Source: Oscillospiraceae bacterium
GTDB lineage: Bacteria; Bacillota; Clostridia; Oscillospirales; Oscillospiraceae
Length of the DNA stretch: 29,288 bases
Reading direction: 5' to 3'
Assembly (NCBI GenBank): GCA_017420125.1
Contig: JAFOJR010000100.1
Coordinates: 1-29,288 of the forward strand
In this document: piece after piece, positions 7,317 to 28,024 of the stretch
Numbering within the stretch: the stretch's first letter is position 1
Layout of the letters: every line of letters begins with the position of its first letter
Program-made: the position numbers and the translations under genes
The notes under the pieces: generated by a model
The model's input: only the letters and a program-made list of their open reading frames with translations
Databases searched by the model: none
Told to the model about the DNA's origin: nothing

Positions 7317-7913
7317 ATGTTTTATATGGCAATGTCTTTCATCTGGGTTTTTATGATTTTGCTTTCTGTTGGTTCCAGTTTCTTTTTCGGCACGGGTGAG
7401 CAGGTCTCAAAGGCTGCATTGGAGGGCGCGGCAGAAGCAGTTCAGCTCTGCCTCTCCATGGCGGGAATTCTCTGCCTGTGGAGCGGCATTATGGAAGTGA
7501 TGCGGCGGTCCGGACTTATGGGGACTCTGTCTCGGATTCTGCGTCCGATTTTGGCGTTGCTCTATCCTCAGTTTAAGCATGACAACAGCGTTATGGAACC
7601 ACTTTCCGCCAATGTGTCTGCCAATTTGCTGGGCTTGGGAAATGCCGCTACCCCCATGGGAATTCAGGCTGCAACACAGATGAATCGTACCTGCCCCGGC
7701 GTGGCCACAGACCCACTTTGCATGTTGGTGGTGTGCAACACTGCCTCAATCCAACTGATTCCCGCTACCATTGCCGGTGTTCGGGCTGCCGCAGGCGCTG
7801 CCGCTCCTTTTGACATCCTTCCGGCAGTGTGGCTGGCCTCCGTCTGCTCTGTTTTGGCCGGCATTTCTGCGGCAAAGCTGTTTCAGCATATCTGGAGGGA
7901 CAGCCTGCAATGA
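7317..7913 (+). CDS. spmA: Spore maturation protein A
   Basis: GILCLWSGIMEV..RSGL, ANLLGLGNAATPMGI.A, NTASIQLIPAT; strong SD GGAGGGGG. Confidence 0.95.
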   Translation: MFYMAMSFIWVFMILLSVGSSFFFGTGEQVSKAALEGAAEAVQLCLSMAGILCLWSGIMEVMRRSGLMGTLSRILRPILALLYPQFKHDNSVMEPLSANVSANLLGLGNAATPMGIQAATQMNRTCPGVATDPLCMLVVCNTASIQLIPATIAGVRAAAGAAAPFDILPAVWLASVCSVLAGISAAKLFQHIWRDSLQ

Positions 7914-8437
7914 ACCTGCTGTTTTCTATGCTGGTTCCGCTGATCCTGGCTTTGGTGGCTCTGTTTGGCTTTCTCCGTAAAACGGATGTTTACGCTGCTT
8001 TCTCCGTCGGCGCAAAAGACGGGCTGCATCTGTTGACGCGGATTTTCCCTGCCCTGGTGGGACTGCTCACCGCCGTGTATATGCTGCGGGCTTCCGGACT
8101 GCTGACTCATTTGGAGCAGATTCTTGCTCCCGCCTTGTCTTTTTTGGGAATTCCACCGGAAACCGTGGCACTGATGCTGGTGCGCCCTGTATCCGGCAGC
8201 GGCGCCCTGGGCGTAGGCGCAGAATTAATTTCCACCTATGGCCCGGACTCCATCATTGGCCGCACAGCAGCTGTGATGCTGGGCTCTACGGAAACCACTT
8301 TCTATACAATTACCATTTATTTTGGCGCAGCGGGCATTTCCAAAACCCGTTACGCTATTCCCGCCGCGCTCTGCGCTGATTTTGCAGGTTTTTTGGCCGC
8401 CGCTTGGGCCGTTCGGCTGTTTTCTGCTCTCTCTTAA
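7910..8437 (+). CDS. spmB: Spore maturation protein B
   Basis: Y.AF..GAK.G, FPALVGLL.AV.MLRASG, L.RP.SGSG, GSTETTFYT...YFG. ATG 7910 with GGAGG, ATGA overlap with spmA. Confidence 0.95.
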   Translation: MNLLFSMLVPLILALVALFGFLRKTDVYAAFSVGAKDGLHLLTRIFPALVGLLTAVYMLRASGLLTHLEQILAPALSFLGIPPETVALMLVRPVSGSGALGVGAELISTYGPDSIIGRTAAVMLGSTETTFYTITIYFGAAGISKTRYAIPAALCADFAGFLAAAWAVRLFSALS

Positions 8438-14709: not shown

Positions 14710-14807
14710 CACCACCTGCTTTTTCTGCGGACAAAAAGTCAAAATATCACAGCTAATCTTTATATTTCAGTTCATGAAATTATGGTATAAAAATGAGGAG
14801 GACCATT

Positions 14808-16577
14808 ATGACCTTAACGGAAAATCAGTCTTTAATCGACTGGGTAAATGAAATCGCAGCCCGCACCAAGCCTGACCAGGTTGTCTGGATTGACGGCACC
14901 AACGAACAATTGGAAACGCTTCGTACCATCGGCTGCTCCACCGGAGAACTCTACAAACTGGACGAAACACTGCATCCTGGTTGTTTCCTCCACCGCACTG
15001 CTCAAAACGACGTGGCGCGGGTAGAAGGACGTACTTTCATTTGCTGCAAGAACGAAAAAGACGCCGGACCCACCAATAACTGGATGGCGCCGGATGAAAT
15101 GTATAAAAAACTGTACGCGCTGTATGAAGGCGCTATGAAGGGCCGGACCATGTATGTCATCCCCTATTCTATGGGTGTCATTGGCTCTCCTTTTGCCAAA
15201 TACGGCATTGAAATCACGGACTCGATTTACGTTGTCCTCAGCATGGCTATCATGACCCGGGTGGGTAAATCCGTGTTGGATGCACTGGGTCAGTCCATCG
15301 ATTACATCAAAGGCGTTCATTCTTTGGCACAGCTCAATGAGCAGGAACGATACATTGCCCATTTCCCAGAAGACAACACCATCATGTCGGTCAATTCCGG
15401 TTACGGCGGCAACGTGTTGCTGGGTAAAAAATGCTTTGCCCTGCGCATCGCTTCCTATTTAGGCAAAAATGAAGGCTGGATGGCCGAACATATGCTGATC
15501 CTGGGTATCCAGAATCCCAAAGGAGAGGTCCGGTATTTGTCCGCAGCCTTCCCTTCTGCCTGCGGTAAGACAAACCTCGCCATGCTCATCCCACCGGAGG
15601 GATATCAGAAAAAAGGCTGGAAGGTCTGGTGTGTCGGCGACGACATCGCCTGGATCCGCATTGGTGAAGACGGCCGGCTCTGGGCCATGAACCCAGAATA
15701 TGGCTTTTTCGGCGTGGCTCCCGGCACCAACGCCCGTTCCAATCCCAACGCATTGGCTGCCACAACAAAGGGCACAATTTTCACCAACGTGGTACATGAT
15801 CTGGATAACAATACGGTCTGGTGGGAAGGCCTTAGCGACACGCCGCCTCAGAACGCACTGGACTGGACCGGGAAACCTTGGAACGCCTCTATGGGGGTCA
15901 AAGGCGCCCACCCCAACTCCCGTTTTACTGCACCGGCGAAAAACTGTCCCTGTATTTCCCCGGAATTTGAAGCGCCCCAAGGGGTTCCTTTGTCTGCTAT
16001 TGTATTCGGCGGACGGCGAGCCAAAACTGCACCCTTGGTATATCAGTCCAGAAACTGGATACACGGCGTCTTCGTAGGTTCCATCATGGCTTCGGAAACC
16101 ACCGCTGCTGCCACCGGCGCCGTAGGTGTTGTCCGTCGTGACCCCATGGCTATGCTCCCCTTCTGCGGCTATAATATGGGAGACTACTGGCAGCATTGGC
16201 TGGACATGGGCGATAAAATTGAAAACAAACCGAAAATTTTCAATGTCAATTGGTTCCGTACCGATGAGGATGGTCACTTTATCTGGCCAGGCTTTGGAGA
16301 TAATCTGCGGGTGTTGGAATGGATTATGAGACGCTGCTTTGATGAAGTAGACGCCAGAGAAACAGAAATTGGCTTCCTGCCCTATCCGGAAGACATTAAC
16401 CTGGAGGATCTGACGATTTCCAAGGATACACTGGCCGGTCTTCTGGCTGTGGATCGTCCTCTCTGGCAGAAAGAGGTGGACAGCATCTCGGAGTTCTATC
16501 AGATATTTGGCGATACACTCCCCGATGCATTGAAAGCAGAACTGCATACCCTAAAACGTAATCTGGGCCAGGAGTAA
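14808..16577 (+). CDS. pckG: Phosphoenolpyruvate carboxykinase (GTP)
   Basis: DVARVE.RTFIC, YGGN.LLGKKCFALRIAS, WMAEHMLILG, AAFPSACGKTNLAM, VGDDIAW, NPE.GFFGVAPGT, AHPNSRF, RRDPMAMLPFCGYNMGDY, WPGFG.N.RVL.W. ATG 14808 follows SD GAGGAGG. Confidence 0.97.
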   Translation: MTLTENQSLIDWVNEIAARTKPDQVVWIDGTNEQLETLRTIGCSTGELYKLDETLHPGCFLHRTAQNDVARVEGRTFICCKNEKDAGPTNNWMAPDEMYKKLYALYEGAMKGRTMYVIPYSMGVIGSPFAKYGIEITDSIYVVLSMAIMTRVGKSVLDALGQSIDYIKGVHSLAQLNEQERYIAHFPEDNTIMSVNSGYGGNVLLGKKCFALRIASYLGKNEGWMAEHMLILGIQNPKGEVRYLSAAFPSACGKTNLAMLIPPEGYQKKGWKVWCVGDDIAWIRIGEDGRLWAMNPEYGFFGVAPGTNARSNPNALAATTKGTIFTNVVHDLDNNTVWWEGLSDTPPQNALDWTGKPWNASMGVKGAHPNSRFTAPAKNCPCISPEFEAPQGVPLSAIVFGGRRAKTAPLVYQSRNWIHGVFVGSIMASETTAAATGAVGVVRRDPMAMLPFCGYNMGDYWQHWLDMGDKIENKPKIFNVNWFRTDEDGHFIWPGFGDNLRVLEWIMRRCFDEVDARETEIGFLPYPEDINLEDLTISKDTLAGLLAVDRPLWQKEVDSISEFYQIFGDTLPDALKAELHTLKRNLGQE

Positions 16578-16625: not shown

Positions 16626-16670
16626 CGGACGCAGCAGGACATCCCTTCCCTCTGCGTCCGCTTTTCTCTT
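16626..16670 (+). terminator. Terminator after pckG
   Basis: CGGACGCAG/CTGCGTCCG stem followed by CTTTTCTCTT. Confidence 0.75.
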
Positions 16671-16793
16671 TCCATCAGTGCCTGTGAAACCGTCTCTTAT
16701 CCTTTGGGAAAGCCATCTTTTTTAAAGGGCAAATCCCTTGCAGGGCAGATTACACCGATTCTTTTTCCCCATTTCGGGAAAACGAAGTCATGA

Positions 16794-16822
16794 TTGACAG
16801 TCATTGGAAAATAGACTACAAT
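16794..16822 (+). promoter_or_regulatory. Sigma-A promoter of the spt-like/SDR pair
   Basis: TTGACA(16794-99)-17 nt-TACAAT(16817-22). Confidence 0.85.
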
Positions 16823-16862
16823 AACGCCAGAAAGTACTTGAACACAGAAAGGAGTTTTCCTT

Positions 16863-18065
16863 TTGGATCTTTTTGCAAAATGCGAACAATTCACAGAGGT
16901 AAAAGACCTGAAAGCGCGAAATATTTACCCCTATTTTCACGCTCTGGAATCCAGGCAGGACATAGAAGTCATGATGGAAGGCAAACGCCGTATTATGCTT
17001 GGTTCCAATAATTACTTAGGACTTACTGTACACCCGGATATTATCCGTGCCGGGCTTCAGGCTCTGGAGCAGTACGGCACCGGCTGCTCCGGTTCCCGCT
17101 TTTTAAACGGCACCCTTCAATCCCACATTGAACTGGAACAGGAATTGGCTCACTTCTTGGAAAAAGAAGCTGCTATGACCTTTTCCACGGGGTTCCAGTC
17201 GAATTTAGGCATTATCAGTGCATTGGTGGGCCGAAATGATTATGTCATCTGCGATCGGGAAAACCACGCCAGCATTTACGATGGCTGCCGCCTCAGCTTT
17301 GGCAAAATGCTTCGCTACCGCCACAACGACATGGAAGATCTGGAACGGATTCTCCAACGGGTGCCGGACACTGCCGGCATCTTAATCGTTACTGACGGGG
17401 TATTCAGCATGGGCGGTGACATTGCCAACCTGCCTGCCATTGTCAAATTGGCAAAAAAATACGGCGCGCGCACCATGGTGGACGACGCCCACGGTTTAGG
17501 CGTCATCGGAAATGGCGGCCGCGGCACGGCAGATTATTTCGGTCTGACGGATGAAGTAGACATTTTTATGGGAACATTCTCTAAATCTCTGGCCAGTTTG
17601 GGTGGCTATATGGCCGCCAGCGAAACGGTGGTAGACTATGTCCGTCACAATTCCCGGCCCTTTATTTTCTCCGCCTCCATCCCTCCTTCCAACTGCGCTG
17701 TAGCTTTGGCCGCTCTGCGGTATTTGGAAGCGCACCCGGAGCGGGTTTCCCGTCTGGCCGAGTTGTCCAGATACGTGCGGGAAGGAATGACAAAACGAGG
17801 CATTCCCATCCGCCCGTCCCAATCTCCCATCCCCGGCCGACCGGCGGATACTCCCATTGTTCCTATTTATACCCACAATGCGTACAACACTCTGACCATT
17901 GCAAAGGAACTGTATGAAGAAGGAGTTTATGTAAACTCCGTTCTGCCGCCTGCGACACCTCCCACCGACTGTCTGTTGCGCACCAGTTACATGGCTACTC
18001 ATACAGAGCCTCTCTTGGATGAAGCGATGGATATCATCGCTTCGGTCCTGGCGCGCCACGCTTAG
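16863..18065 (+). CDS. spt: PLP-dependent alpha-oxoamine synthase, most similar in motifs to bacterial serine palmitoyltransferase
   Basis: Family certain: GSNNYLGL, NHASI.DG, DGVFSM.GD, DDAHG.G, GTFSKS, FSAS. SPT-type details: YPYF, GSRFLNGT, STGFQSN, PPATP, MATHT. TTG start 8 nt after SD AAAGGAG. The symbol is an inference. Confidence 0.75.
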   Translation: MDLFAKCEQFTEVKDLKARNIYPYFHALESRQDIEVMMEGKRRIMLGSNNYLGLTVHPDIIRAGLQALEQYGTGCSGSRFLNGTLQSHIELEQELAHFLEKEAAMTFSTGFQSNLGIISALVGRNDYVICDRENHASIYDGCRLSFGKMLRYRHNDMEDLERILQRVPDTAGILIVTDGVFSMGGDIANLPAIVKLAKKYGARTMVDDAHGLGVIGNGGRGTADYFGLTDEVDIFMGTFSKSLASLGGYMAASETVVDYVRHNSRPFIFSASIPPSNCAVALAALRYLEAHPERVSRLAELSRYVREGMTKRGIPIRPSQSPIPGRPADTPIVPIYTHNAYNTLTIAKELYEEGVYVNSVLPPATPPTDCLLRTSYMATHTEPLLDEAMDIIASVLARHA

Positions 18066-18110
18066 GCGATGCAGATGGAAACAAAAAACGAGAAAGAGAT
18101 GGTTGGTGCA

Positions 18111-18899
18111 ATGAAACGTGTTGCAGTTGTCACCGGTGGAAGCAGCGGTATTGGCCGCTGTACCGCCGATCTGTTGGCCCAGAATGGATATCTGGTTTAT
18201 GAGTTGAGCCGTCGGGGCAAAAGCCGTCCCGGTGTGGAGCATCTCACCGCAGACATCAGTAAAAAAGAAGAAGTGGAAGCCGCCTTTTCCCAGATCTTTA
18301 CCCGGGAGGGCCGGCTGGACGCGCTGATCAACAACGCCGGTTTCGGCATCTCCGGCGCGGTGGAATTCACAGATCCGGCAGACGCACGTCGTTTGTTTGA
18401 TGTCAATTTTTTTGGAGCGCTGCATTGTGCTCAATGCGCCATCCCCTATCTGCGGCAAACCGGCGGCGGACACATTGTAAACCTCAGTTCGGTGGCCGGC
18501 CCTCTTCCCATTCCATTCCAATCGTTCTATTCCTGTGCCAAAGCCGCCATCAATGATTTGACGCTGACCCTCGCCAATGAGCTGCGGCCTTTTCACATTG
18601 CGGTCGCCGCAGTAATGCCGGGGGATGCCAAAACCGGCTTTACGGCTGCAAGAAAGAAAAATACGGACGGGGAAGAATTTTACGGTGCCGCCATTCAGCG
18701 GGCAGTACAGGCCATGGAGCGCGATGAGCAGAACGGAATGCCTCCCATTGCCATTGCTCGTAAAATTCTGCGAATTCTTTCCAAATCCTCTCCTAAGCCT
18801 TTGGTAGTGGCCGGGAAAAAATATCAGCTCTTCATGTGTCTTGCCAAATTCCTGCCCATACGGACTGTGAATTTCATTATCGGAAAAATGTATGGCTAA
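18111..18899 (+). CDS. Classical short-chain dehydrogenase/reductase, candidate 3-ketodihydrosphingosine reductase
   Basis: TGGSSGIG, LSRR, NNAG, catalytic Ser in LSSVAG, YSCAK (YxxxK), PGD.KTGFT. Start ATG 18111 or 18069 (3 nt after the spt-like stop). SDR fold secure, substrate inferred. Confidence 0.85.
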   Translation: MKRVAVVTGGSSGIGRCTADLLAQNGYLVYELSRRGKSRPGVEHLTADISKKEEVEAAFSQIFTREGRLDALINNAGFGISGAVEFTDPADARRLFDVNFFGALHCAQCAIPYLRQTGGGHIVNLSSVAGPLPIPFQSFYSCAKAAINDLTLTLANELRPFHIAVAAVMPGDAKTGFTAARKKNTDGEEFYGAAIQRAVQAMERDEQNGMPPIAIARKILRILSKSSPKPLVVAGKKYQLFMCLAKFLPIRTVNFIIGKMYG

Positions 18900-18925
18900 T
18901 TCATCTGCGATCTTTTAAAACCATC

Positions 18926-18954
18926 TTGACAGGTACAACGGAACCGCGTAGAAT
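18926..18954 (+). promoter_or_regulatory. Sigma-A promoter of the DUF554 gene
   Basis: TTGACA(18926-31)-17 nt-TAGAAT(18949-54). Confidence 0.8.
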
Positions 18955-19019
18955 CGTTCTGTTGTTTGTCCGGCTTTTCTGCCCTTTTATGTCAAATTTT
19001 TGTCAAGGAGGAATCCCAT

Positions 19020-19739
19020 TTGATCGCCACTGTCATCAATGCCGGTCTTGTTTTAATCGGCAGCATCTTGGGTCTTCTGCTGCGGGGACGGTTAAATGAA
19101 CAGCTTTCTTTGAGCCTGACCCGGGCTTTGGCGCTCTGTGTCATGCTCATCGGGATCCAATCCGCTATAGGCAGCCAAAACCTTCTTTGTGTCATCATCT
19201 GTATGGTGGTAGGCACTTTGCTGGGCGAGTGGCTGCATATTGAAGACCGGTTGGACAACCTGGGCGAGGTTTTGCGCCGCAAATTGGTGCACAGCAACGG
19301 AAACAGTCGATTTACAGAAGGTTTCGTCTCTGCCACTATTTTATTCTGTGTTGGTTCCATGGCCATCATGGGCAGCATTGAAGCAGGATTGAACCACAAT
19401 TATACCATTTTGGTTTCAAAAGGCATCATCGATGGCGTTACTTCGATTTCGTTTGCTGCCTCCATGGGCATCGGCGTAGCCTTTTCTGCCATCCCACTGT
19501 TGCTGTATCAAGGTGCAATCACCCTCCTTGCCATAGCTGTGGGGCCGTTTCTGGCTACCCAAACCGCTTCTATTACAGAGCTTTCTGCTGTAGGCGGCGT
19601 TATTATTATGGGCATCGCTTTTAATATGTTTCAATTTTCAACACACAAAATCCGTGTCGGCAACATGCTGCCCGCCGTTTTTCTGCCATTTCTGTATATC
19701 CCATTTTCCAACTGGATTTCCACTTTGATTGCAATTTGA
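19020..19739 (+). CDS. DUF554 (YdfK-like) multi-pass membrane protein
   Basis: ATVIN...V..GS.LG, GEWL.IE.RL, GFV.A..LFCVGSM.I.GS...GL, K..IDG..S..FA..MG.GV.FSA.P, GG.....I. TTG 19020 after SD AAGGAGG. Confidence 0.9.
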   Translation: MIATVINAGLVLIGSILGLLLRGRLNEQLSLSLTRALALCVMLIGIQSAIGSQNLLCVIICMVVGTLLGEWLHIEDRLDNLGEVLRRKLVHSNGNSRFTEGFVSATILFCVGSMAIMGSIEAGLNHNYTILVSKGIIDGVTSISFAASMGIGVAFSAIPLLLYQGAITLLAIAVGPFLATQTASITELSAVGGVIIMGIAFNMFQFSTHKIRVGNMLPAVFLPFLYIPFSNWISTLIAI

Positions 19740-19752
19740 ACACGTTTATTGG

Positions 19753-19785
19753 CCGGAAGAGGTTGTATGCCTTTTCCGGTTTTTT
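19753..19785 (+). terminator. Terminator after DUF554
   Basis: CCGGAAGAGG/CCTTTTCCGG stem followed by TTTTTT. Confidence 0.85.
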
Positions 19786-19862
19786 ATTCATTTTTATTGA
19801 ATATATTCATTTTTATTGCGCAAATTACACAAGATATTGCAAAGGAATTCCGAAATTCTTTG

Positions 19863-19892
19863 CTTGCATAATCATTCATGCTGTGTTACAAT
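19863..19892 (+). promoter_or_regulatory. arg operon promoter with overlapping ARG box (ArgR/AhrC operator)
   Basis: TGCAT-AATC-ATTCA (19865-78) fits TGNAT-N4-ATNCA and covers the -35 TTGCAT(19864-69); 17 nt; TG-extended TACAAT(19887-92). Confidence 0.85.
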
Positions 19893-19980
19893 GACCCCAA
19901 TAAAAATTCTAGGAAATACGCAAGGCCCCTCGAAAGCTTTTGGCTGGTTGCCCTTGCGTCCCCCTACAGGAGGAAAAACA

Positions 19981-21201
19981 ATGAAAGAAATCAAAAAAGT
20001 AGTCCTCGCCTATTCCGGCGGACTGGATACATCTGTTATTATTCCTTGGCTGAAAGAAAATTATAACAATTGTGAAGTCATTGCCGTCTCCGGCGACGTG
20101 GGCCAAGGCACGGAACTGGACGGGCTGGAAGAGAAAGCTATTAAAACCGGCGCTTCCAAATTATATATCGAACATCTGACAGAGGAATTCGTGGATGAAT
20201 ATATTATTCCTACCATGAAAGCCGGGGCAGATTATGAAGGCTATCTGCTGGGCACCTCTTTTGCCCGTCCCATCATCGCAAAGAGAATTGCAGAAATCGC
20301 TCTCGCTGAAGGAGCAGACGCTATTGCCCATGGCTGCACCGGCAAAGGCAATGATCAGGTTCGGTTTGAACTGGCCATCAAAACCTTCGCCCCGGAAATG
20401 GAAATCATCGCTCCCTGGAGAACCTGGGAACTGAAAAGTCGGGAAGATGAAATTGCTTACGCCGAAGCACACAACGTGCCTTTGAAGATTAACCGGGAAA
20501 CCAATTATTCCAAAGATAAAAACATCTGGCATTTAAGCCATGAAGGACTGGATCTGGAAGATCCGGGCAATGAACCCAAATACGATGAAATTCTGGAAAT
20601 GGGCGTCACTCCGGAAAAAGCACCCGACGTCCCCACTTATGTAACCATCGGCTTTGAAAGCGGCACGCCTGTCTCTGTCAATGGCGAAACCATGAATTGC
20701 ACCAAGATTATTGAAACATTGAATGAGCTGGGCGGAAAAAACGGCATCGGCATCTTGGACTTGGTGGAAAATCGCCTGGTGGGTATGAAGAGCCGCGGCG
20801 TATATGAAACACCGGGTGGCGCTATTCTGTACCGCGCTCATGAAATTTTAGAATCTATCACATTGGATAAAGATACTGCCCACGAAAAGGCCCGTCTGGC
20901 CATCACCTTTGCCGAACTGGTTTACAACGGAAAATGGTACACTCCCCTGCGGGAAGCTCTCTCCGCCTTTGTAGACAAGACTCAAGAGCCCGTTACCGGA
21001 ACCGTAAAGCTGAAGCTGTATAAGGGCAATCTCATTCCCGCCGGTGTCTGGTCCCCCAATTCCCTCTACAGCGAAGATCTGGCCTCCTTTGGGGAAAGCG
21101 ATTACAATCAGATGGATTCCCAAGGCTTTATCAATCTATATGGCCTGCCGAATAAAGTCCAGGCTTTGCTGCAGAAAAAGCGGAATCAGTCTACACTTTA
21201 A
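19981..21201 (+). CDS. argG: Argininosuccinate synthase
   Basis: [63 protein letters not shown]; SD AGGAGG. Confidence 0.98.
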
Positions 21202-21214
21202 TTTTTGATATCTC

Positions 21215-21249
21215 TGCCACCCGCCGGAACCGTTTTCCGGCGGGTGGCA
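21215..21249 (+). repeat. Perfect 15-bp intergenic inverted repeat between argG and argH
   Basis: TGCCACCCGCCGGAA-CCGTT-TTCCGGCGGGTGGCA, no U-tract. Confidence 0.9.
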
Positions 21250-21281
21250 CTCATACAGGTGAACATGGAAGGAGCAGTACT

Positions 21282-22682
21282 ATGAAACTCTGGGCAGGAA
21301 GATTCCAAAAAGAAACAGATACTGCCGTCAACGATTTTAATTCTTCTATCCTCTTTGACGCCCGGCTGTATCAGGAAGATATCGCCGGCAGCATCGCCCA
21401 TGCCACGATGTTGGGTGAACAAGGCATCATTACCACAGAAGAATCCCAACAGATTATTGCTGGGTTAAAGGCTATTTTAGCAGATATTGAAGCAGATCAG
21501 GTGCAATTTTCTCTGGAAAACGAAGATATTCACATGAATATCGAAACCATGTTGACCCAGCGCATCGGCGCCACCGGAAAACGTCTGCACACCTCCCGCA
21601 GTCGAAATGATCAGGTTGCAGTCGATTTGCGTCTCCATCTGAAGAAGGAGATTGTCCGGATTCGGGACATGATCCTGGACTTGGAAGACGTGTTGCTCCA
21701 GAAGGCAGAGGAAAATCTGGAAACGGTCATGCCCGGCTACACCCATATGCAGCGCGCCCAGCCCACCACCTTTGCCCACTATATGATGGCATACGCCAAC
21801 ATGCTGCGACGGGATGTCACCCGGCTGGAAGACTGTTTGGAGCGGATGGATGAATCTCCCCTGGGCAGCGGGGCGCTGGCCTCCAGCACCTACCCAATTA
21901 ATCGTCATCGAACTGCGGAACTGCTGGGTTTTGCCCGCATCACGGAAAACAGCCTGGACGGGGTATCCGACCGGGATTTTGCCATTGAATTCACTTCCGC
22001 CCTCTCCATCCTCATGATGCATCTGTCCCGTTTTTCGGAAGAAATCATTCTCTGGTGTTCCTGGGAATTCCGTTTTGTAGAATTGGACGACGCTTATTCC
22101 ACCGGTTCTTCCATCATGCCGCAAAAGAAAAATCCCGATGTAGCCGAGCTGGTGCGGGGCAAAACCGGTCGGGTTTACGGCTCGCTGATCACGCTTTTAA
22201 CGGTGATGAAGGGCCTGCCCCTCGCTTACAACAAAGATATGCAGGAAGACAAAGAGCCGATTTTCGATGCCATTGACACCGTCTCGCAATGTTTGCCGGT
22301 ATTTGGCTCCATGGTAAAAACCCTCACAGTCCTGCCAAAAAATATGCGGAATGCCGCTTCTGCCGGTTTTATCAACGCTACGGATTGTGCAGATTATCTG
22401 GTTAAAAAAGGTCTGCCTTTCCGGGACGCATATATGATTGTGGGCCGTTTGGTTCACATGTGCATGCAATCTGGTGAAAATCTGGAGACTTTGACTCTTC
22501 GGGATTTCCGCGCTGTCTCTGATTTGTTTGACATGGATGTTTACCATGCTTTGGAGCTGAAAACCTGCGTCAACGGCAGAAAGGCGGACGGTGGCCCCTC
22601 TAAAACAGCAGTGGAAAAACAAATTGCCTCGATTCGTGCTTTTGTCCAAGCACGGCGGGCGAAAGAAGGCGACATAAAATGA
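21282..22682 (+). CDS. argH: Argininosuccinate lyase
   Basis: KLWAGRF, EDIHMNIE, LHTSRSRNDQV, MPGYTHMQRAQP, GSSIMPQKKNPD, AYNKDMQEDKE, ATDCADYLVKKG.PFR. Confidence 0.98.
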   Translation: MKLWAGRFQKETDTAVNDFNSSILFDARLYQEDIAGSIAHATMLGEQGIITTEESQQIIAGLKAILADIEADQVQFSLENEDIHMNIETMLTQRIGATGKRLHTSRSRNDQVAVDLRLHLKKEIVRIRDMILDLEDVLLQKAEENLETVMPGYTHMQRAQPTTFAHYMMAYANMLRRDVTRLEDCLERMDESPLGSGALASSTYPINRHRTAELLGFARITENSLDGVSDRDFAIEFTSALSILMMHLSRFSEEIILWCSWEFRFVELDDAYSTGSSIMPQKKNPDVAELVRGKTGRVYGSLITLLTVMKGLPLAYNKDMQEDKEPIFDAIDTVSQCLPVFGSMVKTLTVLPKNMRNAASAGFINATDCADYLVKKGLPFRDAYMIVGRLVHMCMQSGENLETLTLRDFRAVSDLFDMDVYHALELKTCVNGRKADGGPSKTAVEKQIASIRAFVQARRAKEGDIK

Positions 22683-23644
22683 ACGCACAAACCAAACCTA
22701 AGATTTTTATCGACGGTCAGGAAGGCACCACGGGGTTGCAAATCCATGATCGGCTGGGCAGCCGGAGCGACATCTCCCTGCTGACCATCGACCCTGCTCT
22801 GCGGAAAGATCTCAACGAACGGAAACGGCTATTGAATGCCGCAGATCTGGTGTTCCTCTGCCTGCCGGACGCGGCTGCACGGGAAGCCGTTTCCCTGATT
22901 GACAATCCCAACACCCGGGTCATCGATGCTTCCACTGCCCATCGAACTGCGCCTGGCTGGGTCTATGGTTTTCCTGAACTGAATCCCACGCAGCGGGATG
23001 ATATCCGTATCGCCAAACGGGTGGCCAATCCTGGCTGCCACGCCACCGGCTTTATCTCCACCGTATATCCTCTGGTGGCCGCTGGCCTTCTATCCGAAAA
23101 CAGTGCCCTCACCTGCTTTTCTTTAACAGGATACAGCGGCGGCGGCAAAAAAATGATCGCCTCGTATGAAGCGGACCGTCGTCCTGTTGCGTTGGACAGC
23201 CCTCGGATTTACGGTTTAACTCTGCAGCACAAGCATTTGCCGGAAATGCAGAAAATCACCGGGCTGAAAAATCCTCCTGTTTTTTGTCCTGTGGTTTCCG
23301 ATTATTACAAGGGAATGGCAACTACTATTATGCTCCCCTCTTCTTTGCTTCGGGGGGCACCTTCGGCAAAAGATATTTGGGATGTCTTAAACGCCCACTA
23401 TGCAAATCAGGCGCTGGTCCAAGTGGCCCCGTTCCAGGGGGAGGGATTTTTGCACGACAATATGATTGATGCCAACCACATGGCGGGCTCTAATGCGCTG
23501 GAAATTCTCGTCTGCGGCAAAGAAGATCAGACCATCGTCACTGCATTGTTTGACAATTTGGGCAAAGGTGCTTCCGGCGCCGCCGTACAAAATATGAATT
23601 TGATGCTGGGTCTGCCTGAAACAACAGGTCTTTTGGAAGATTGA
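22679..23644 (+). CDS. argC: N-acetyl-gamma-glutamyl-phosphate reductase, type 2 (uncommon form)
   Basis: KIFIDGQEGTTGLQI, VFLCLPD.AA, IDASTAHR, YGFPEL, VANPGCHATG, GYSGGGKKMI, HKHLPEM, DNLGKGASGAAVQNMNLMLG; ATGA overlap with argH. Confidence 0.96.
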   Translation: MNAQTKPKIFIDGQEGTTGLQIHDRLGSRSDISLLTIDPALRKDLNERKRLLNAADLVFLCLPDAAAREAVSLIDNPNTRVIDASTAHRTAPGWVYGFPELNPTQRDDIRIAKRVANPGCHATGFISTVYPLVAAGLLSENSALTCFSLTGYSGGGKKMIASYEADRRPVALDSPRIYGLTLQHKHLPEMQKITGLKNPPVFCPVVSDYYKGMATTIMLPSSLLRGAPSAKDIWDVLNAHYANQALVQVAPFQGEGFLHDNMIDANHMAGSNALEILVCGKEDQTIVTALFDNLGKGASGAAVQNMNLMLGLPETTGLLED

Positions 23645-23707
23645 GTTCCTCGTTCTTTGAAAATTCTTTCGATAGGCAGTCAAATTCCAAGGGAAAGGAT
23701 AAAGGAT

Positions 23708-24925
23708 ATGAAACAGATTTCTGGCGGCGTTGCTGCCGCAACCGGATTTACCGCCGCAGGCCTTCATTGCGGTGTAAAAAACAAAAACCATACCAAAAAA
23801 GATTTAGCCCTGATCGTTTCCCAGGGGGACTGCGCCGCCGCCGCTGTGTATACCCGCAACCGCGTTAAGGCCGCCCCTATTTACGTTACGATGGAGCATT
23901 TGGAAAATGGCGTGGCGCGGGCCATTGTCTGCAATAGTGGCAATGCCAACGCTTGTGCTCCCATGGGTCACGAAAACGCTCAAAAAATGTGCGATGTAGC
24001 AGGAGAAGCTCTGGGCCTCTCCCCAGACGATATTGTGGTCGCCTCCACCGGCGTCATTGGCCAAACACTGAATATCAAGGCGCTGGAAGAAGGCATTCCC
24101 AAAGCCGCTGCCATTCTTTCAAAAGATGGTTCCGATGATGCTGCACAGGCTATCATGACCACAGATACCGTCAAAAAAGAATTTGCCCTTCAAGTGCAAA
24201 TTGGCGGGAAATCAGTGACCTTGGGCGGTATCGCCAAAGGCTCTGGTATGATCCATCCCAACATGGGTACCATGCTTTGCTTTATTACCACAGACGCTGC
24301 TATCACCCCGGAAATGCTGCAAGCGGCACTGTCTGAAATTACCGCCCGTACTTTTAACCGTGTGGTGGTGGATGGAGACACTTCCACGAATGACATGTGT
24401 GTGGTTTTGGCCAACGGCATGGCGGAAAATCCGCTGATCGAATGGAAAGACGACAATTATAAAGTCTTTTCCGCTGCACTGTATCAGCTTTGCGAGCTCT
24501 TTGCCAAGTCCATTGCCGCAGATGGGGAAGGGGCTTCCCGCCTGATCACCTGCAACGTACGCAATGCCCGCAGCGAGGAAACAGCAGAACGTATGGCAAT
24601 GGCTGTCATCAGCTCTCCTTTGGTGAAAACCGCCATGTTCGGCGCGGATGCCAACTGGGGCCGTGTACTCTGTGCCATGGGCTACTCCAAGGCGCCCTTT
24701 CGCCCGGAGCATGTGGACATCCAGTTTCAATCCGTTGTCGGGTCCATCACGGTCTGCAAAAGTGGAGAAGGTCTGGCTTTTGATGAAGACAGCGCCAAAA
24801 GCATCCTGTCCCAGGACGAAGTCATTATTGACATCAATCTGCAGGAGGGGCAGGACAATGCCACTGCTTGGGGCTGTGACCTGACATATGACTATGTGAA
24901 AATCAACGGCGATTACCGCACTTAA
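23708..24925 (+). CDS. argJ: Ornithine acetyltransferase / bifunctional ArgJ
   Basis: NSGNANAC, STGVIG, IMTTDT, GIAKGSGMIHPNMG/TML (autocleavage Thr), DGDTSTND, DGEGA, KTAMFGADANWGR, WGCDLTYDYVKING.YRT. Confidence 0.97.
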   Translation: MKQISGGVAAATGFTAAGLHCGVKNKNHTKKDLALIVSQGDCAAAAVYTRNRVKAAPIYVTMEHLENGVARAIVCNSGNANACAPMGHENAQKMCDVAGEALGLSPDDIVVASTGVIGQTLNIKALEEGIPKAAAILSKDGSDDAAQAIMTTDTVKKEFALQVQIGGKSVTLGGIAKGSGMIHPNMGTMLCFITTDAAITPEMLQAALSEITARTFNRVVVDGDTSTNDMCVVLANGMAENPLIEWKDDNYKVFSAALYQLCELFAKSIAADGEGASRLITCNVRNARSEETAERMAMAVISSPLVKTAMFGADANWGRVLCAMGYSKAPFRPEHVDIQFQSVVGSITVCKSGEGLAFDEDSAKSILSQDEVIIDINLQEGQDNATAWGCDLTYDYVKINGDYRT

Positions 24926-24977
24926 CCGAAATCCCTCATAGAACCCTGCATTTGTATCAAAATCGGGAGGAATCATC

Positions 24978-25832
24978 ATGCCTTATTCTTCTGCGGATCG
25001 CGCCACCGTTTTGGTGGAAGCGCTTCCCTATATTCAAAAGTTCAACGGAAAAACCATTGTGGTGAAATATGGCGGGAACGCCATGGTCAGTGAAGCGCTG
25101 CGCCATGCAGTAATCAGCGACATCGTCCTGTTGTCCCTTGTGGGGATCCGGGTGGTGGTTGTGCACGGCGGCGGTCCGGAAATCAATGATATGCTTCAAC
25201 GAGTGGGAAAGGAATCCCGTTTTGTAAACGGTCTCCGCTATACCGACCAGGAAACAATGGACATTGTTCAAATGGTACTTTGCGGCAAGGTGAACAAAGA
25301 TTTGGTTGCAACCCTGAACCGCATGGGTGGCAAGGCCCTCGGTCTTTGCGGCATAGATAGTGGAATGTTCTCCGCTACCCGGCTGTCTGACGAGTATGGC
25401 CTGGTGGGTGAGATTTCCAGTGTGGATCCCACTATCGTCACGGACACACTGGAACGTGGATATATCCCGGTGATCTCCTCCGTAGCGCTGGGGGAAGACG
25501 CCGAAACCTCCTATAACATCAATGCGGATACAGCGGCCGCCAAACTGGCTGTAGCCATGCACGCGGAGAAACTGATCCTTCTCACTGACGTAAAAGGACT
25601 GCTGCGAGACCCGAAAGACGATTCTACCCTTTTGCGAGTAGTTCCTGTGTCCACTGTTCCCGGGTTGATCAAAGACGGGATCATCTCCGGTGGGATGATT
25701 CCCAAAGTGGACTGCTGTGTGGAAGCCGTCCGCTCCGGCGTATCTCGCACCCATATCTTAGACGGACGACAGCCCCATTCTATTTTGATTGAAATGCTCT
25801 CCGATGAAGGCATCGGAACGATGATTTTATAA
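24978..25832 (+). CDS. argB: Acetylglutamate kinase
   Basis: [62 protein letters not shown].....G.GT. Confidence 0.97.
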
Positions 25833-25910
25833 TATCCTGCCCCTTTTGGGGCAGCACATCCATCCCTTGGCTTTTGTTTCCAGGGATATCCATCAAACGG
25901 GAGGAAGATT

Positions 25911-27110
25911 ATGTCTTTTGAATCATTACAGCAGGCAGATCGGCAGAATGTTCTGCAAACATATGCCCGGTTCCCCGTGGCCATCGACCACGGAGCAGGG
26001 GCAACCCTTTATGATGTAGAAGGGAAAAAGTACATCGATTTCACCAGCGGCATCGGTGTCAACTCCATCGGCTACGGCAATGCCAAATGGGTAGACACCG
26101 TTACCCAGCAGGCCAAAAAACTGGCCCATATTTCCAATCTGTTTTACAGCGAACCCTACATCAAACTGGCCGAAACCCTGTGTCGGCGCAGCGGTATGGC
26201 CGGCGCCTTCTTTGCCAATTCCGGCGCAGAATCAAACGAAGGTATCATCAAGCTGGCCAGAAAATACAGCTTTGACAAATATGGAAAAGGAAGAGGAACT
26301 GTCATCACGCTAAATCAATCTTTCCATGGCAGAACCATTTCCACTTTGGCTGCCACCGGCCAAGAAGTGTTCCACAATTATTTCTTCCCCTTTACCGATG
26401 GTTTCCGCACCACTCCAACCAATGATATGGAAGGTATTTCCGCCGTGGCAGGACACGATGTGTGTGCTGTGCTGCTGGAACTGGTACAGGGAGAAGGCGG
26501 CGTACTTCCGGTAGACCCTGCATTTGTGAAAGACCTTGCCGCTTTGTGCAAAGAGCGGGACTGGCTCCTGCTGGTGGACGAGGTGCAAACCGGCATCGGC
26601 CGCACCGGCACTTTATTTGCGTTCCAGCAGTATGATATCCAGCCCGATGCAGTCAGCTTCGCCAAAGGCATTGCCGGCGGACTTCCCTTCGGCGGATTCC
26701 TCGCCAACGCCCGGTGTAAAGATGTACTCGGCCCCGGCACCCACGCCACCACCTTTGGCGGCAATTTGATCTGTGCTGCAGCCGCCTGCACGGTGCTTGA
26801 CATCTTAAACGACGACATGCTGGAGCAGGTAAAAGAAAAAGGTGCCTACCTCTGTACTCAGATTGAAGCCATGAACAGCCCCCTCCTCGGCACGCCGCGG
26901 GGACTCGGTATGATGATCGGCATTCCTGTTCTGGAAAAAAGCAATAAGGAATTGGCCGTCCAAATGGTGGAAAACGGCCTTCTCTGCCTTACCGCCGGCA
27001 AGGACGCGCTCCGGCTTCTGCCCCCACTGACCATCACAAAGGAAGAAATGGATGAAGGACTTGCCATTATGAAGCAAGTACTTTCCTCTGTGGAGGGAAC
27101 TGCCCAATGA
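25911..27110 (+). CDS. argD: Acetylornithine aminotransferase
   Basis: YIDF.SGIGVN..G, FFANSGAESNE..IKLARK, SFHGRT, E.VQGEGGV, DEVQTG.GRTG, AKG.AGG.P.G, H.TTFGGN, LRLLPPL; position in the arg operon. Confidence 0.95.
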   Translation: MSFESLQQADRQNVLQTYARFPVAIDHGAGATLYDVEGKKYIDFTSGIGVNSIGYGNAKWVDTVTQQAKKLAHISNLFYSEPYIKLAETLCRRSGMAGAFFANSGAESNEGIIKLARKYSFDKYGKGRGTVITLNQSFHGRTISTLAATGQEVFHNYFFPFTDGFRTTPTNDMEGISAVAGHDVCAVLLELVQGEGGVLPVDPAFVKDLAALCKERDWLLLVDEVQTGIGRTGTLFAFQQYDIQPDAVSFAKGIAGGLPFGGFLANARCKDVLGPGTHATTFGGNLICAAAACTVLDILNDDMLEQVKEKGAYLCTQIEAMNSPLLGTPRGLGMMIGIPVLEKSNKELAVQMVENGLLCLTAGKDALRLLPPLTITKEEMDEGLAIMKQVLSSVEGTAQ

Positions 27111-28024
27111 CCCAAAAAAATCTGCTGAAACTCATGGATCTGACTCAGGAAGATATTACAGAAATTCTGGATACCGCCGATCAGATGAAATATAATCTAA
27201 AGCATCATATCCCTCACCCTTCTTTGCAGGGACAAACACTGGCCATGATCTTTGAAAAAAGCTCTACCCGAACCCGTACTTCTTTCGAAGTAGGTATGTA
27301 TCAGTTGGGCGGCCACGCTCTTTTCCTCAGCAGTAAAGAATCTCAACTGGGCAGAGGGGAACCGATCGAGGATACCGCCCGGGTTCTGTCTCGTTATTGC
27401 AATGGGATCATGATTCGCACTTATGCCCAGTCGCAAGTGGAAGATTTGGCCCAATATGCCACCATTCCTGTCATCAACGGCCTCAGCGATTTTTGCCATC
27501 CCTGCCAGGTGCTGGCCGATCTGATGACCATCCGGGAAAAAATGACCCGGCTGGAGGGCTTGAAATTGTGCTATATCGGCGATGGCAACAATATGGCCAA
27601 TTCTCTCATTGTCGGCGGTATCAAATGCGGCATGAAGGTCTCCGTTGCTTGTCCTGATGGATATCTTCCCGATGCTTCTGTAATGGAATTTGCCCGCCAA
27701 AACGGTCAGTTTGAACTGACCGACCAGCCGGAAATTGCCGCAGTGGATGCTGACGCTTTATTTACAGACGTCTGGGCCAGCATGGGCATGGAGCAGGATG
27801 CCGCTGCCCGGCGGATTGCGTTTCAGGGCTATCAGATCAATGATGCCATTATGTCACTGGCGCATCCCGGCGCCATAGTGCAGCATTGCCTGCCTGCCCA
27901 TCGAGGCGAAGAAATCACTGCCCAGGTCTTTGAAGCCCACGCAGATGAAATTTTCGAGGAGGCGGAAAACCGGTTGCATGTCCAAAAAGCCGTTATGCAC
28001 CTCCTGATGCACAAGAACAAATAA
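27107..28024 (+). CDS. argF: Ornithine carbamoyltransferase
   Basis: FEKSSTRTR.SFE, HPCQ.LADL.T, GDGNNMA.S, TDVWASMG, HCLPAHRGEEI, AENRLH.QKA; ATGA overlap with argD. Confidence 0.97.
   Translation: MTQKNLLKLMDLTQEDITEILDTADQMKYNLKHHIPHPSLQGQTLAMIFEKSSTRTRTSFEVGMYQLGGHALFLSSKESQLGRGEPIEDTARVLSRYCNGIMIRTYAQSQVEDLAQYATIPVINGLSDFCHPCQVLADLMTIREKMTRLEGLKLCYIGDGNNMANSLIVGGIKCGMKVSVACPDGYLPDASVMEFARQNGQFELTDQPEIAAVDADALFTDVWASMGMEQDAAARRIAFQGYQINDAIMSLAHPGAIVQHCLPAHRGEEITAQVFEAHADEIFEEAENRLHVQKAVMHLLMHKNK

Follow-up and report, generated by a model that had tools for sequence, protein, structure and literature searches.

A Candidate Two-Gene Unit for Sphingoid-Base Synthesis in Clostridia

The Locus Encodes an α-Oxoamine Synthase and an Adjacent Short-Chain Dehydrogenase/Reductase

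We have analyzed a pair of adjacent genes on contig JAFOJR010000100.1 (assembly GCA_017420125.1) of an uncultured gut bacterium of the Oscillospiraceae. The whole stretch of DNA studied, 29,288 nt in length, is referred to below as the window. The first gene (16863–18065, + strand) encodes an α-oxoamine synthase (AOS) of 400 amino acids, a pyridoxal phosphate (PLP) enzyme that resembles serine palmitoyltransferase (SPT) in its NCBIfam and PDB scores, pocket residues and position in a tree. The second (18069–18899, + strand) is an open reading frame (ORF) of 276 amino acids for a classical short-chain dehydrogenase/reductase (SDR), identified with NCBIfam and Pfam as a KdsR-like 3-ketoreductase. 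An earlier reading of the DNA, the original prediction, had called the pair a candidate sphingolipid-biosynthesis operon. On balance we favor the interpretation that the two genes form a single transcription unit, whose sequences point to the synthesis of a sphinganine-like long-chain amino alcohol, i.e., a sphingoid base.

Both ORFs are found where they had been placed, and the predicted spacing of 3–45 nt between them is borne out by the reading frames and the alignment of homologues. The SDR frame contains further in-frame ATG codons at 18075, 18099 and 18111, and the gap is given as a range because the methionine at 18111, from which the conserved protein is 262 amino acids long, is where the alignments to homologues and to the KdsR model begin. 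The AOS begins with a TTG codon, and its homologues align from residue 1 or 2. A Shine-Dalgarno sequence AAAGGAG (16849–16855, + strand), read from the sequence, lies 7 nt 5′ of this start. All the sequence motifs listed in the original prediction are present in the translations. For the AOS these are YPYF, GTGCSGSRFLNGT, FSTGFQSNLG, RNDYVICDRENHASIYDGCRLSF, GTFSKSLASLGG, PPATP and MATHT, and for the SDR they are NNAGFGISGAVE, IPFQSFYSCAK, PGDAKTGFTAAR and ERDEQNGMPP.

The unit is separated from the upstream PEPCK gene (14793–16577, identified with Pfam) by a terminator-like hairpin at 16627–16671 (+ strand), read from the sequence 3′ of that gene as GGACGCAG ... CTGCGTCC followed by a T-rich tract. 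The near-consensus promoter that had been proposed is present as a σ70-type site TTGACA-17-TACAAT (16794–16822, + strand) that matches at 11 of 12 positions. Such a match is weak by itself, because a scan of this kind finds about four sites by chance in the region. RNA-library contigs from three runs (X16, X17 and X18) begin at 16845–16847, about 15 nt 3′ of the expected start site; the end of a contig cannot prove where a transcript starts or stops.

DNA of the window is found in animal-gut metagenomes of a dozen studies, mainly bovine, and around half of it is contained in four metatranscriptome runs from two studies. Contigs of those four runs cover both genes. The AOS–SDR junction is bridged by two RNA-library contigs, and three bridge the gap (18900–18965) between the SDR gene and the DUF554 gene that follows it, while three of the four runs have no contig over 16634–16750. 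This pattern is consistent with a single transcript initiated at the predicted promoter and possibly reading through. In one X15 contig a base is missing at window position 18884, a change that would alter the C-terminal end of the SDR and that probably reflects strain variation or an error in the contig.

The Gene Pair Is Widespread but Patchy in Clostridia

A search of a species-representative genome collection gave 387 relatives of the AOS, and we analyzed the loci of the best 80 of these. The 80 proteins are 69–83% identical to that of the window, and nearly all are labeled Clostridia (Oscillospiraceae, Acutalibacteraceae, Ruminococcaceae and Christensenellaceae). Their sources are ruminant, human and chicken guts, and digesters. 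One carrier among the 80, Christensenella sp. MSJ-20, is a cultured organism.

The SDR gene follows the AOS gene within 80 nt in 66 of the 78 informative loci, and the pairing is not due to chance. In one family (f21) the genes are again neighbors, in divergent orientation. Apart from the SDR, the one recurrent neighbor in the 80 loci is a MarR regulator, found 5′ of the pair in nine. An ABC transporter, a transglutaminase, ETF and MatE were considered as conserved neighbors and were rejected as lineage-specific. The simple ORF caller also returned antisense shadow ORFs, which we ignored.

Two surveys show how the genes are distributed. Among 121 genomes sampled evenly across the order, the AOS is present in 24 (~20%) and an SDR orthologue in 25; 21 genomes have both genes, three have the AOS alone, four the SDR alone and 93 neither. 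The two genes are thus coupled in their phyletic distribution; we leave these figures as counts because related genomes are not independent. Class-wide, an orthologue (57–74% identity) occurs in 33 of 243 other high-quality genomes (~14%), spread over some dozen families beyond the order and including eight of the nine genomes of one family. The pair is thus not peculiar to this organism, and is an accessory, patchy and widespread trait in Clostridia.

Two loci (L073 and L087) belong to metagenome-assembled genomes (MAGs) labeled Kiritimatiellia. Each has an AOS of 69% identity and lacks the SDR, the genes on either side being those for MatE and an M18 aminopeptidase, and the copies reflect either horizontal transfer or mis-binning.

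The AOS Is SPT-Like in Family Scores, Pocket Residues and Phylogeny

We compared the AOS with the 18,950 models of NCBIfam. The best match is the Bacteroidota-type SPT (SerpalmtaseCFB, NF047600), at 527.8 bits against a curated cut-off of 640. The protein scores 393.7 bits with the β-proteobacterial SPT model, 379.9 and 312 bits with the two Kbl models (NF005394 and TIGR01822; cut-offs 460 and 493), 372.3 bits with the BioF model TIGR00858 (cut-off 426.45), 254.7 with ALAS and 201.6 with CqsA. It reaches none of the curated NCBIfam cut-offs. Pfam gives just the general aminotransferase class I/II fold. Among proteins in the PDB the best match is the SPT of S. multivorum, at 418.6 bits and ~53% identity over the full length, followed by the SPTs of Sphingomonas (~294 bits), Kbl (at most 258), cysteate acyltransferase (at most 232) and BioF (at most 208). 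The identity is 37% to E. coli Kbl and 31% to E. coli BioF.

The active site was examined in an alignment of the window AOS with 118 Clostridial homologues, three nearer representatives, and the Kbl and BioF of the annotated E. coli K-12 genome. The catalytic residues His135, Asp207, His210, Lys241 and Arg373 correspond to His159, Asp231, His234, Lys265 and Arg390 of the S. paucimobilis enzyme. This PLP set, comprising the stacking His, the Asp to N1, the His to O3′, the Schiff-base Lys and the carboxylate Arg, is invariant in the 118 homologues.

A 2023 crystallographic study of S. multivorum SPT placed Asn52, Tyr54, Gly80, Ser81, His138, Ser185, Asp210, Ala212, His213, Thr241, Ser243, Lys244, Met271, Phe272, Ser273 and Ala274 around PLP-L-serine, with the acyl site walled by Tyr27 and Phe83 (PMC10196870). 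The window AOS keeps all the listed contact residues except two, with Ala79 replaced by Ser and Met271 by Ile; at Met271 it is the main chain that makes the contact. Kbl of E. coli has residues other than those of the SPT at Tyr27, Phe28, Gly80-Ser81, Asn85, Ser243 and Ala274 (S. multivorum numbering), and so does E. coli BioF at all of these except Gly80-Ser81. At each of these positions the window AOS has the SPT residue, as do 115–118 of the 118 Clostridial homologues. Within the acyl wall Phe83 is also present in E. coli Kbl, whereas Tyr27 differs. We regard the SPT-type pocket residues as the strongest argument from sequence for a long-chain, serine-type enzyme.

A phylogeny had been suggested as a check on the original prediction. 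We constructed a maximum-likelihood tree of 128 sequences, comprising the window AOS, E. coli Kbl and BioF, 11 Clostridial homologues, and 114 representatives taken from the matches obtained when 1.8 billion proteins were searched exhaustively. The representatives were labeled by their NCBIfam scores, and the two E. coli proteins are the sole named reference rows. The Clostridial sequences form a clade with support of 100, with the representative P0122 as sister (support 99). Clade and sister fall inside an SPT-like group of 119 rows (support 99), with E. coli Kbl and BioF outside. The tree places the AOS with the SPT-like proteins and apart from E. coli Kbl and BioF, but in a clade of its own. 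Twenty representatives from across the SPT-like group were scored. The Bacteroidota SPT model was the best match for all of them, at 387–625 bits, so that the window AOS lies in the upper part of the range of the group while remaining outside the curated family. Taking family scores, identity to a solved SPT, pocket residues and tree together, the AOS is clearly SPT-like, and neither a BioF nor a Kbl.

The genomic settings of two relatives in the tree lend some support to a role in sphingoid-base synthesis. The gene for P0128, a close relative that scores 625 bits and is also below the cut-off, lies in a cluster of AOS, GNAT, SDR, FabA, KS, ACP, PPTase and epimerase-type reductase genes that looks like a sphingolipid-type cluster. 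In the sister P0122 the AOS gene overlaps an SDR gene, followed by a small GNAT gene, and PTS genes adjoin. A well-supported SPT-like clade of proteins of ~800 amino acids (P0132, P0142 and about ten more) has an N-terminal FemAB-like/Acetyltransf_6 (GNAT) domain fused to the AOS, and P0142 has in addition a C-terminal PilZ domain. From their domains, these fusions could be enzymes combining a base synthase with an N-acyltransferase, and P0142 is possibly responsive to c-di-GMP. Further fusions of SPT-like domains, to DUF1571, STAS, a response-regulator receiver, and a thioesterase-ACP-luciferase-like monooxygenase module, are found among P0127, P0138, P0213 and P0175.

In the window AOS, residues 319–327 (SQSPIPGRP) form a nine-residue insertion with respect to S. 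multivorum SPT, and seven residues are extra compared with the Sphingomonas enzyme. Many of the Clostridial homologues are shorter here, and the segment is probably a variable surface loop.

The SDR Resembles 3-Ketosphinganine Reductase

The original prediction had likened the SDR to the BT_0972 family of reductases. KdsR (NF049977), the 3-ketodihydrosphingosine reductase of Bacteroides, is indeed the best of the 18,950 NCBIfam models, and the whole model is aligned, but the score of 226 bits falls short of the curated cut-off of 400. The next-best match to KdsR elsewhere in the genome reaches 105 bits. KdsR is also the family with the best E-value for all of 30 AOS-adjacent SDR orthologues from other lineages, the best of these giving 1.5e-76. 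A Pfam adh_short score of 154 bits identifies the protein as a classical SDR.

The protein carries the motif TGGSSGIG, and T8, G9, G13, G15, S127, Y140 and K144 (numbered from the methionine at 18111) are invariant in the 30 orthologues. So is Arg34, which follows the second β-strand. In classical SDRs an arginine just after the second strand indicates use of NADP(H). The invariant Arg34 thus suggests an NADP(H)-dependent enzyme, and on that basis a biosynthetic reductase. The linkage of its gene to that of an SPT-like enzyme indirectly favors 3-ketodihydrosphingosine as the substrate.

A Proposed Pathway to a Sphingoid Base

The chemistry that would be carried out by the pair is suggested by homology. 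The AOS would bind an amino acid, L-serine being the likeliest, as the PLP external aldimine, and this would undergo decarboxylative condensation with a long-chain acyl-CoA or acyl-ACP, with loss of CO2, to give a 3-keto long-chain base of the 3-ketodihydrosphingosine type. The adjacent SDR, probably with NADPH, would then reduce the 3-keto group to generate a sphinganine-like base. Afterwards the base may stay free, or may be modified by a non-homologous enzyme. We infer the substrates, cofactor and product from the sequences of the two proteins.

A number of observations weigh against this proposal, beginning with the scores. Both proteins are below the curated cut-offs for their best families, and because of this neither can be filed in the curated SPT or KdsR families; they therefore represent a clade of their own. 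The KdsR score is just ~23 bits above that of a generic SDR subfamily, PRK06179 (204 bits). None of the 20 scored representatives of the SPT-like group passes any curated cut-off, and in the tree the window clade sits in a large SPT-like radiation of mostly uncharacterized specificity. Within the pocket, position 76 of the window AOS (S. multivorum Ala79), which is equivalent to Cys133 of human SPTLC1, a residue linked to the choice of amino acid, is invariably Ser in the clade. RNA libraries can contain DNA, and carry-over is uncontrolled for the contigs described above. The literature searched contained no lipid data for any carrier.

Gene content weighs in the same direction. We found no gene for an acyl-CoA ligase, ACP or N-acyltransferase near the pair, and no ACP or ceramide-synthase gene in the window, as the original prediction had stated; bio and tdh genes are lacking there as well. 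It had also suggested a genome-wide search for ceramide synthase homologues, which found no Acetyltransf_6 or FemAB-like domain in the MAG; we take this domain to be that of the bacterial ceramide synthase (bCerS) type. There is no ceramide-synthase model among the NCBIfam accessions beside those for SPT, the neighboring accessions being unrelated MscS channel families. The label "sphingolipid biosynthesis" is unsupported beyond a sphingoid-base step, because no ceramide-synthase-type gene was found. The MAG comprises 1.23 Mb in 219 contigs and is an estimated 91% complete by marker count. Its single AOS gene, together with the lack of BioB, BioA and Tdh above the cut-offs, favors the proposal. 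Its relatives have genomes of 1.7–3.3 Mb (1.8–3.3 Mb for those of the same family), and because the MAG is small by comparison, and its completeness may be overestimated, failure to find a gene there carries limited weight.

Alternative Functions for the Pair

Of the alternatives, the one that survives best keeps the same chemistry with another substrate or product. The AOS could use glycine, alanine, threonine or a sulfonated amino acid, or a medium-chain acyl donor, which we judge unlikely while giving it serious weight. A similarly low but real chance attaches to the products that would follow, i.e., a deoxy-sphingoid base, another amino lipid, or a diffusible amino- or hydroxy-ketone signal such as might be made by a CqsA-like enzyme with a reductase. 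The separate clade, the score below the SPT cut-off and the tree neighbors, all of them uncharacterized, are consistent with a different specificity, as are the invariant Ser76 at the position equivalent to SPTLC1 Cys133 and the failure to find a ceramide synthase in the genome. A MarR gene 5′ of the pair in nine of 80 loci is what is usual for regulated accessory pathways. Against this, the network around the serine hydroxyl (Asn52, Gly80 and Ser243) is conserved together with the acyl wall of Tyr27 and Phe83, and the enzymes that use other substrates match much less well, with cysteate acyltransferase at 232 bits compared to 418 for SPT, and CqsA at 201.

We think it improbable that the AOS is a Kbl-type glycine C-acetyltransferase acting with a dehydrogenase, either in threonine breakdown or in making aminoacetone and then aminopropanol. 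An AOS beside a dehydrogenase mirrors the kbl-tdh arrangement of E. coli, and the Kbl models still give 380 and 312 bits; these scores are however below the cut-offs of 460 and 493 and far under that for SPT. The pocket differs from that of E. coli Kbl at all the discriminating positions (Tyr27, Phe28, Gly80-Ser81, Asn85, Ser243 and Ala274), and the tree separates the two. The partner is a classical SDR whose invariant arginine after β-2 suggests an NADPH reductase, rather than a zinc or extended-SDR Tdh; a profile search of the MAG found no Tdh above cut-off; and the gene is patchy, occurring in ~20% of the order sample.

A BioF (8-amino-7-oxononanoate synthase) functioning in biotin synthesis is very improbable, despite the use of that name for homologues in JGI and UniRef and a BioF score of 372 bits, since that score is below the cut-off of 426, the identity is 31%, the pocket differs, the partner is an SDR and not a bio gene, and the same profile search found no BioB or BioA above cut-offs in the MAG.

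Comparison with Known Systems

Among known enzymes the AOS is closest to S. multivorum SPT (PDB 3A2B and 8GUH; NF047600 itself names the Bacteroides SPT). Both are soluble fold-type I PLP enzymes of ~400 amino acids that share ~53% identity, the catalytic His/Asp/His/Lys/Arg set, the serine network, Tyr27 with Phe83, and, where Sphingomonas has Arg378, a hydrophobic residue. The window AOS differs in belonging to a separate clade, in the Ala79 to Ser and Met271 to Ile changes and in the insertion at 319–327. The setting is also different, the host being a monoderm without an outer membrane, and the gene lying in an operon with a reductase.

The SDR is like the Bacteroides KdsR (BT_0972 family) in being a classical SDR of ~265 amino acids that aligns with the full length of the model. 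It differs in its score below the cut-off, and in that its gene adjoins that of the AOS; the Bacteroides kdsR gene is presumably not adjacent to spt. The Caulobacter-type ceramide pathway (Spt, ACP, bCerS and CerR) has an SPT-family first step in common with the proposed route. Yet the α-proteobacterial SPT model gives the AOS 341 bits against a cut-off of 670, the MAG has no Acetyltransf_6/FemAB-like acyltransferase, and in the order implied here the 3-keto group would be reduced prior to any acylation, which is also how the KdsR route proceeds. E. coli Kbl-Tdh and BioF share the AOS superfamily and the core PLP residues, and differ in pocket, partner genes and position in the tree.

Possible Significance for Gut Sphingolipids

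The lineage had been described as a spore former, which the gene content supports. The genome encodes SpoIVA (627 bits against a cut-off of 460), and tandem SpmA/SpmB-like genes are present in the window at 7317–8437.

To our knowledge Clostridia are not known to make sphingolipids. Our searches for SPT in Clostridia or Firmicutes, for lipids of Christensenella and for AOS–SDR pairs returned nothing relevant, and this clade is neither reported nor predicted in any paper we found. In the gut-microbiome literature searched, bacterial sphingolipids are credited to Bacteroidota and some Proteobacteria, and in one paper the Bacteroides spt gene is the sole basis for quantifying microbial sphingolipid capacity (10.1101/2021.12.01.470820).

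We put forward tentatively, with somewhat less than even confidence, the broader proposal that many monoderm, spore-forming Clostridia of gut and rumen (about one-seventh of the species sampled) produce sphingoid bases, either free or carrying unusual modifications, by means of the minimal two-gene unit, without a canonical ceramide synthase. If so, such Clostridia would join Bacteroidota as a second, unrecognized source of host-active sphingoid lipids in the guts of animals, and a large group of ruminant and human gut Clostridia would be left out of estimates of microbial sphingolipid capacity. Sphingoid lipids would then not be tied to possession of an outer membrane, and the public annotation of homologues as 8-amino-7-oxononanoate synthase would be wrong. 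The question is directly testable because a cultured carrier exists in Christensenella sp. MSJ-20, whose sequence NZ_CP076563.1 has, on the minus strand, the AOS gene at about 1,437,495–1,438,664 and the SDR gene immediately 3′ of it at about 1,436,713–1,437,486.

Neighboring Genes in the Window

The gene that follows the pair encodes a DUF554 membrane protein (18966–19739, + strand; Pfam DUF554). It was considered as a member of the unit and rejected, being found 3′ of the pair in just the three closest relatives. A promoter scan places a promoter-like site TTGACA-17-TAGAAT at 18926–18954 (+ strand), and a terminator scan places its terminator at 19751–19781 (+ strand) and found none between the SDR and DUF554 genes. 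The gene is possibly also reached by read-through from the pair. The promoter-like site ends just 11 nt 5′ of the TTG listed as the start of DUF554, which makes a later true start probable.

The rest of the window has a housekeeping character, with genes for an amino-acid ABC transporter, a P-type ATPase, the SpmA/SpmB-like proteins, Tex, RsmA, PEPCK, DUF554 and an arginine cluster. They include no lipid, biotin or threonine-degradation gene. The arginine-biosynthesis genes are contiguous at 19816–28024 and comprise argG, argH, argC-like, argJ, argB, argD-like and argF. The listed argG ORF begins ~55 codons 5′ of the conserved domain, and so its true start is probably later.

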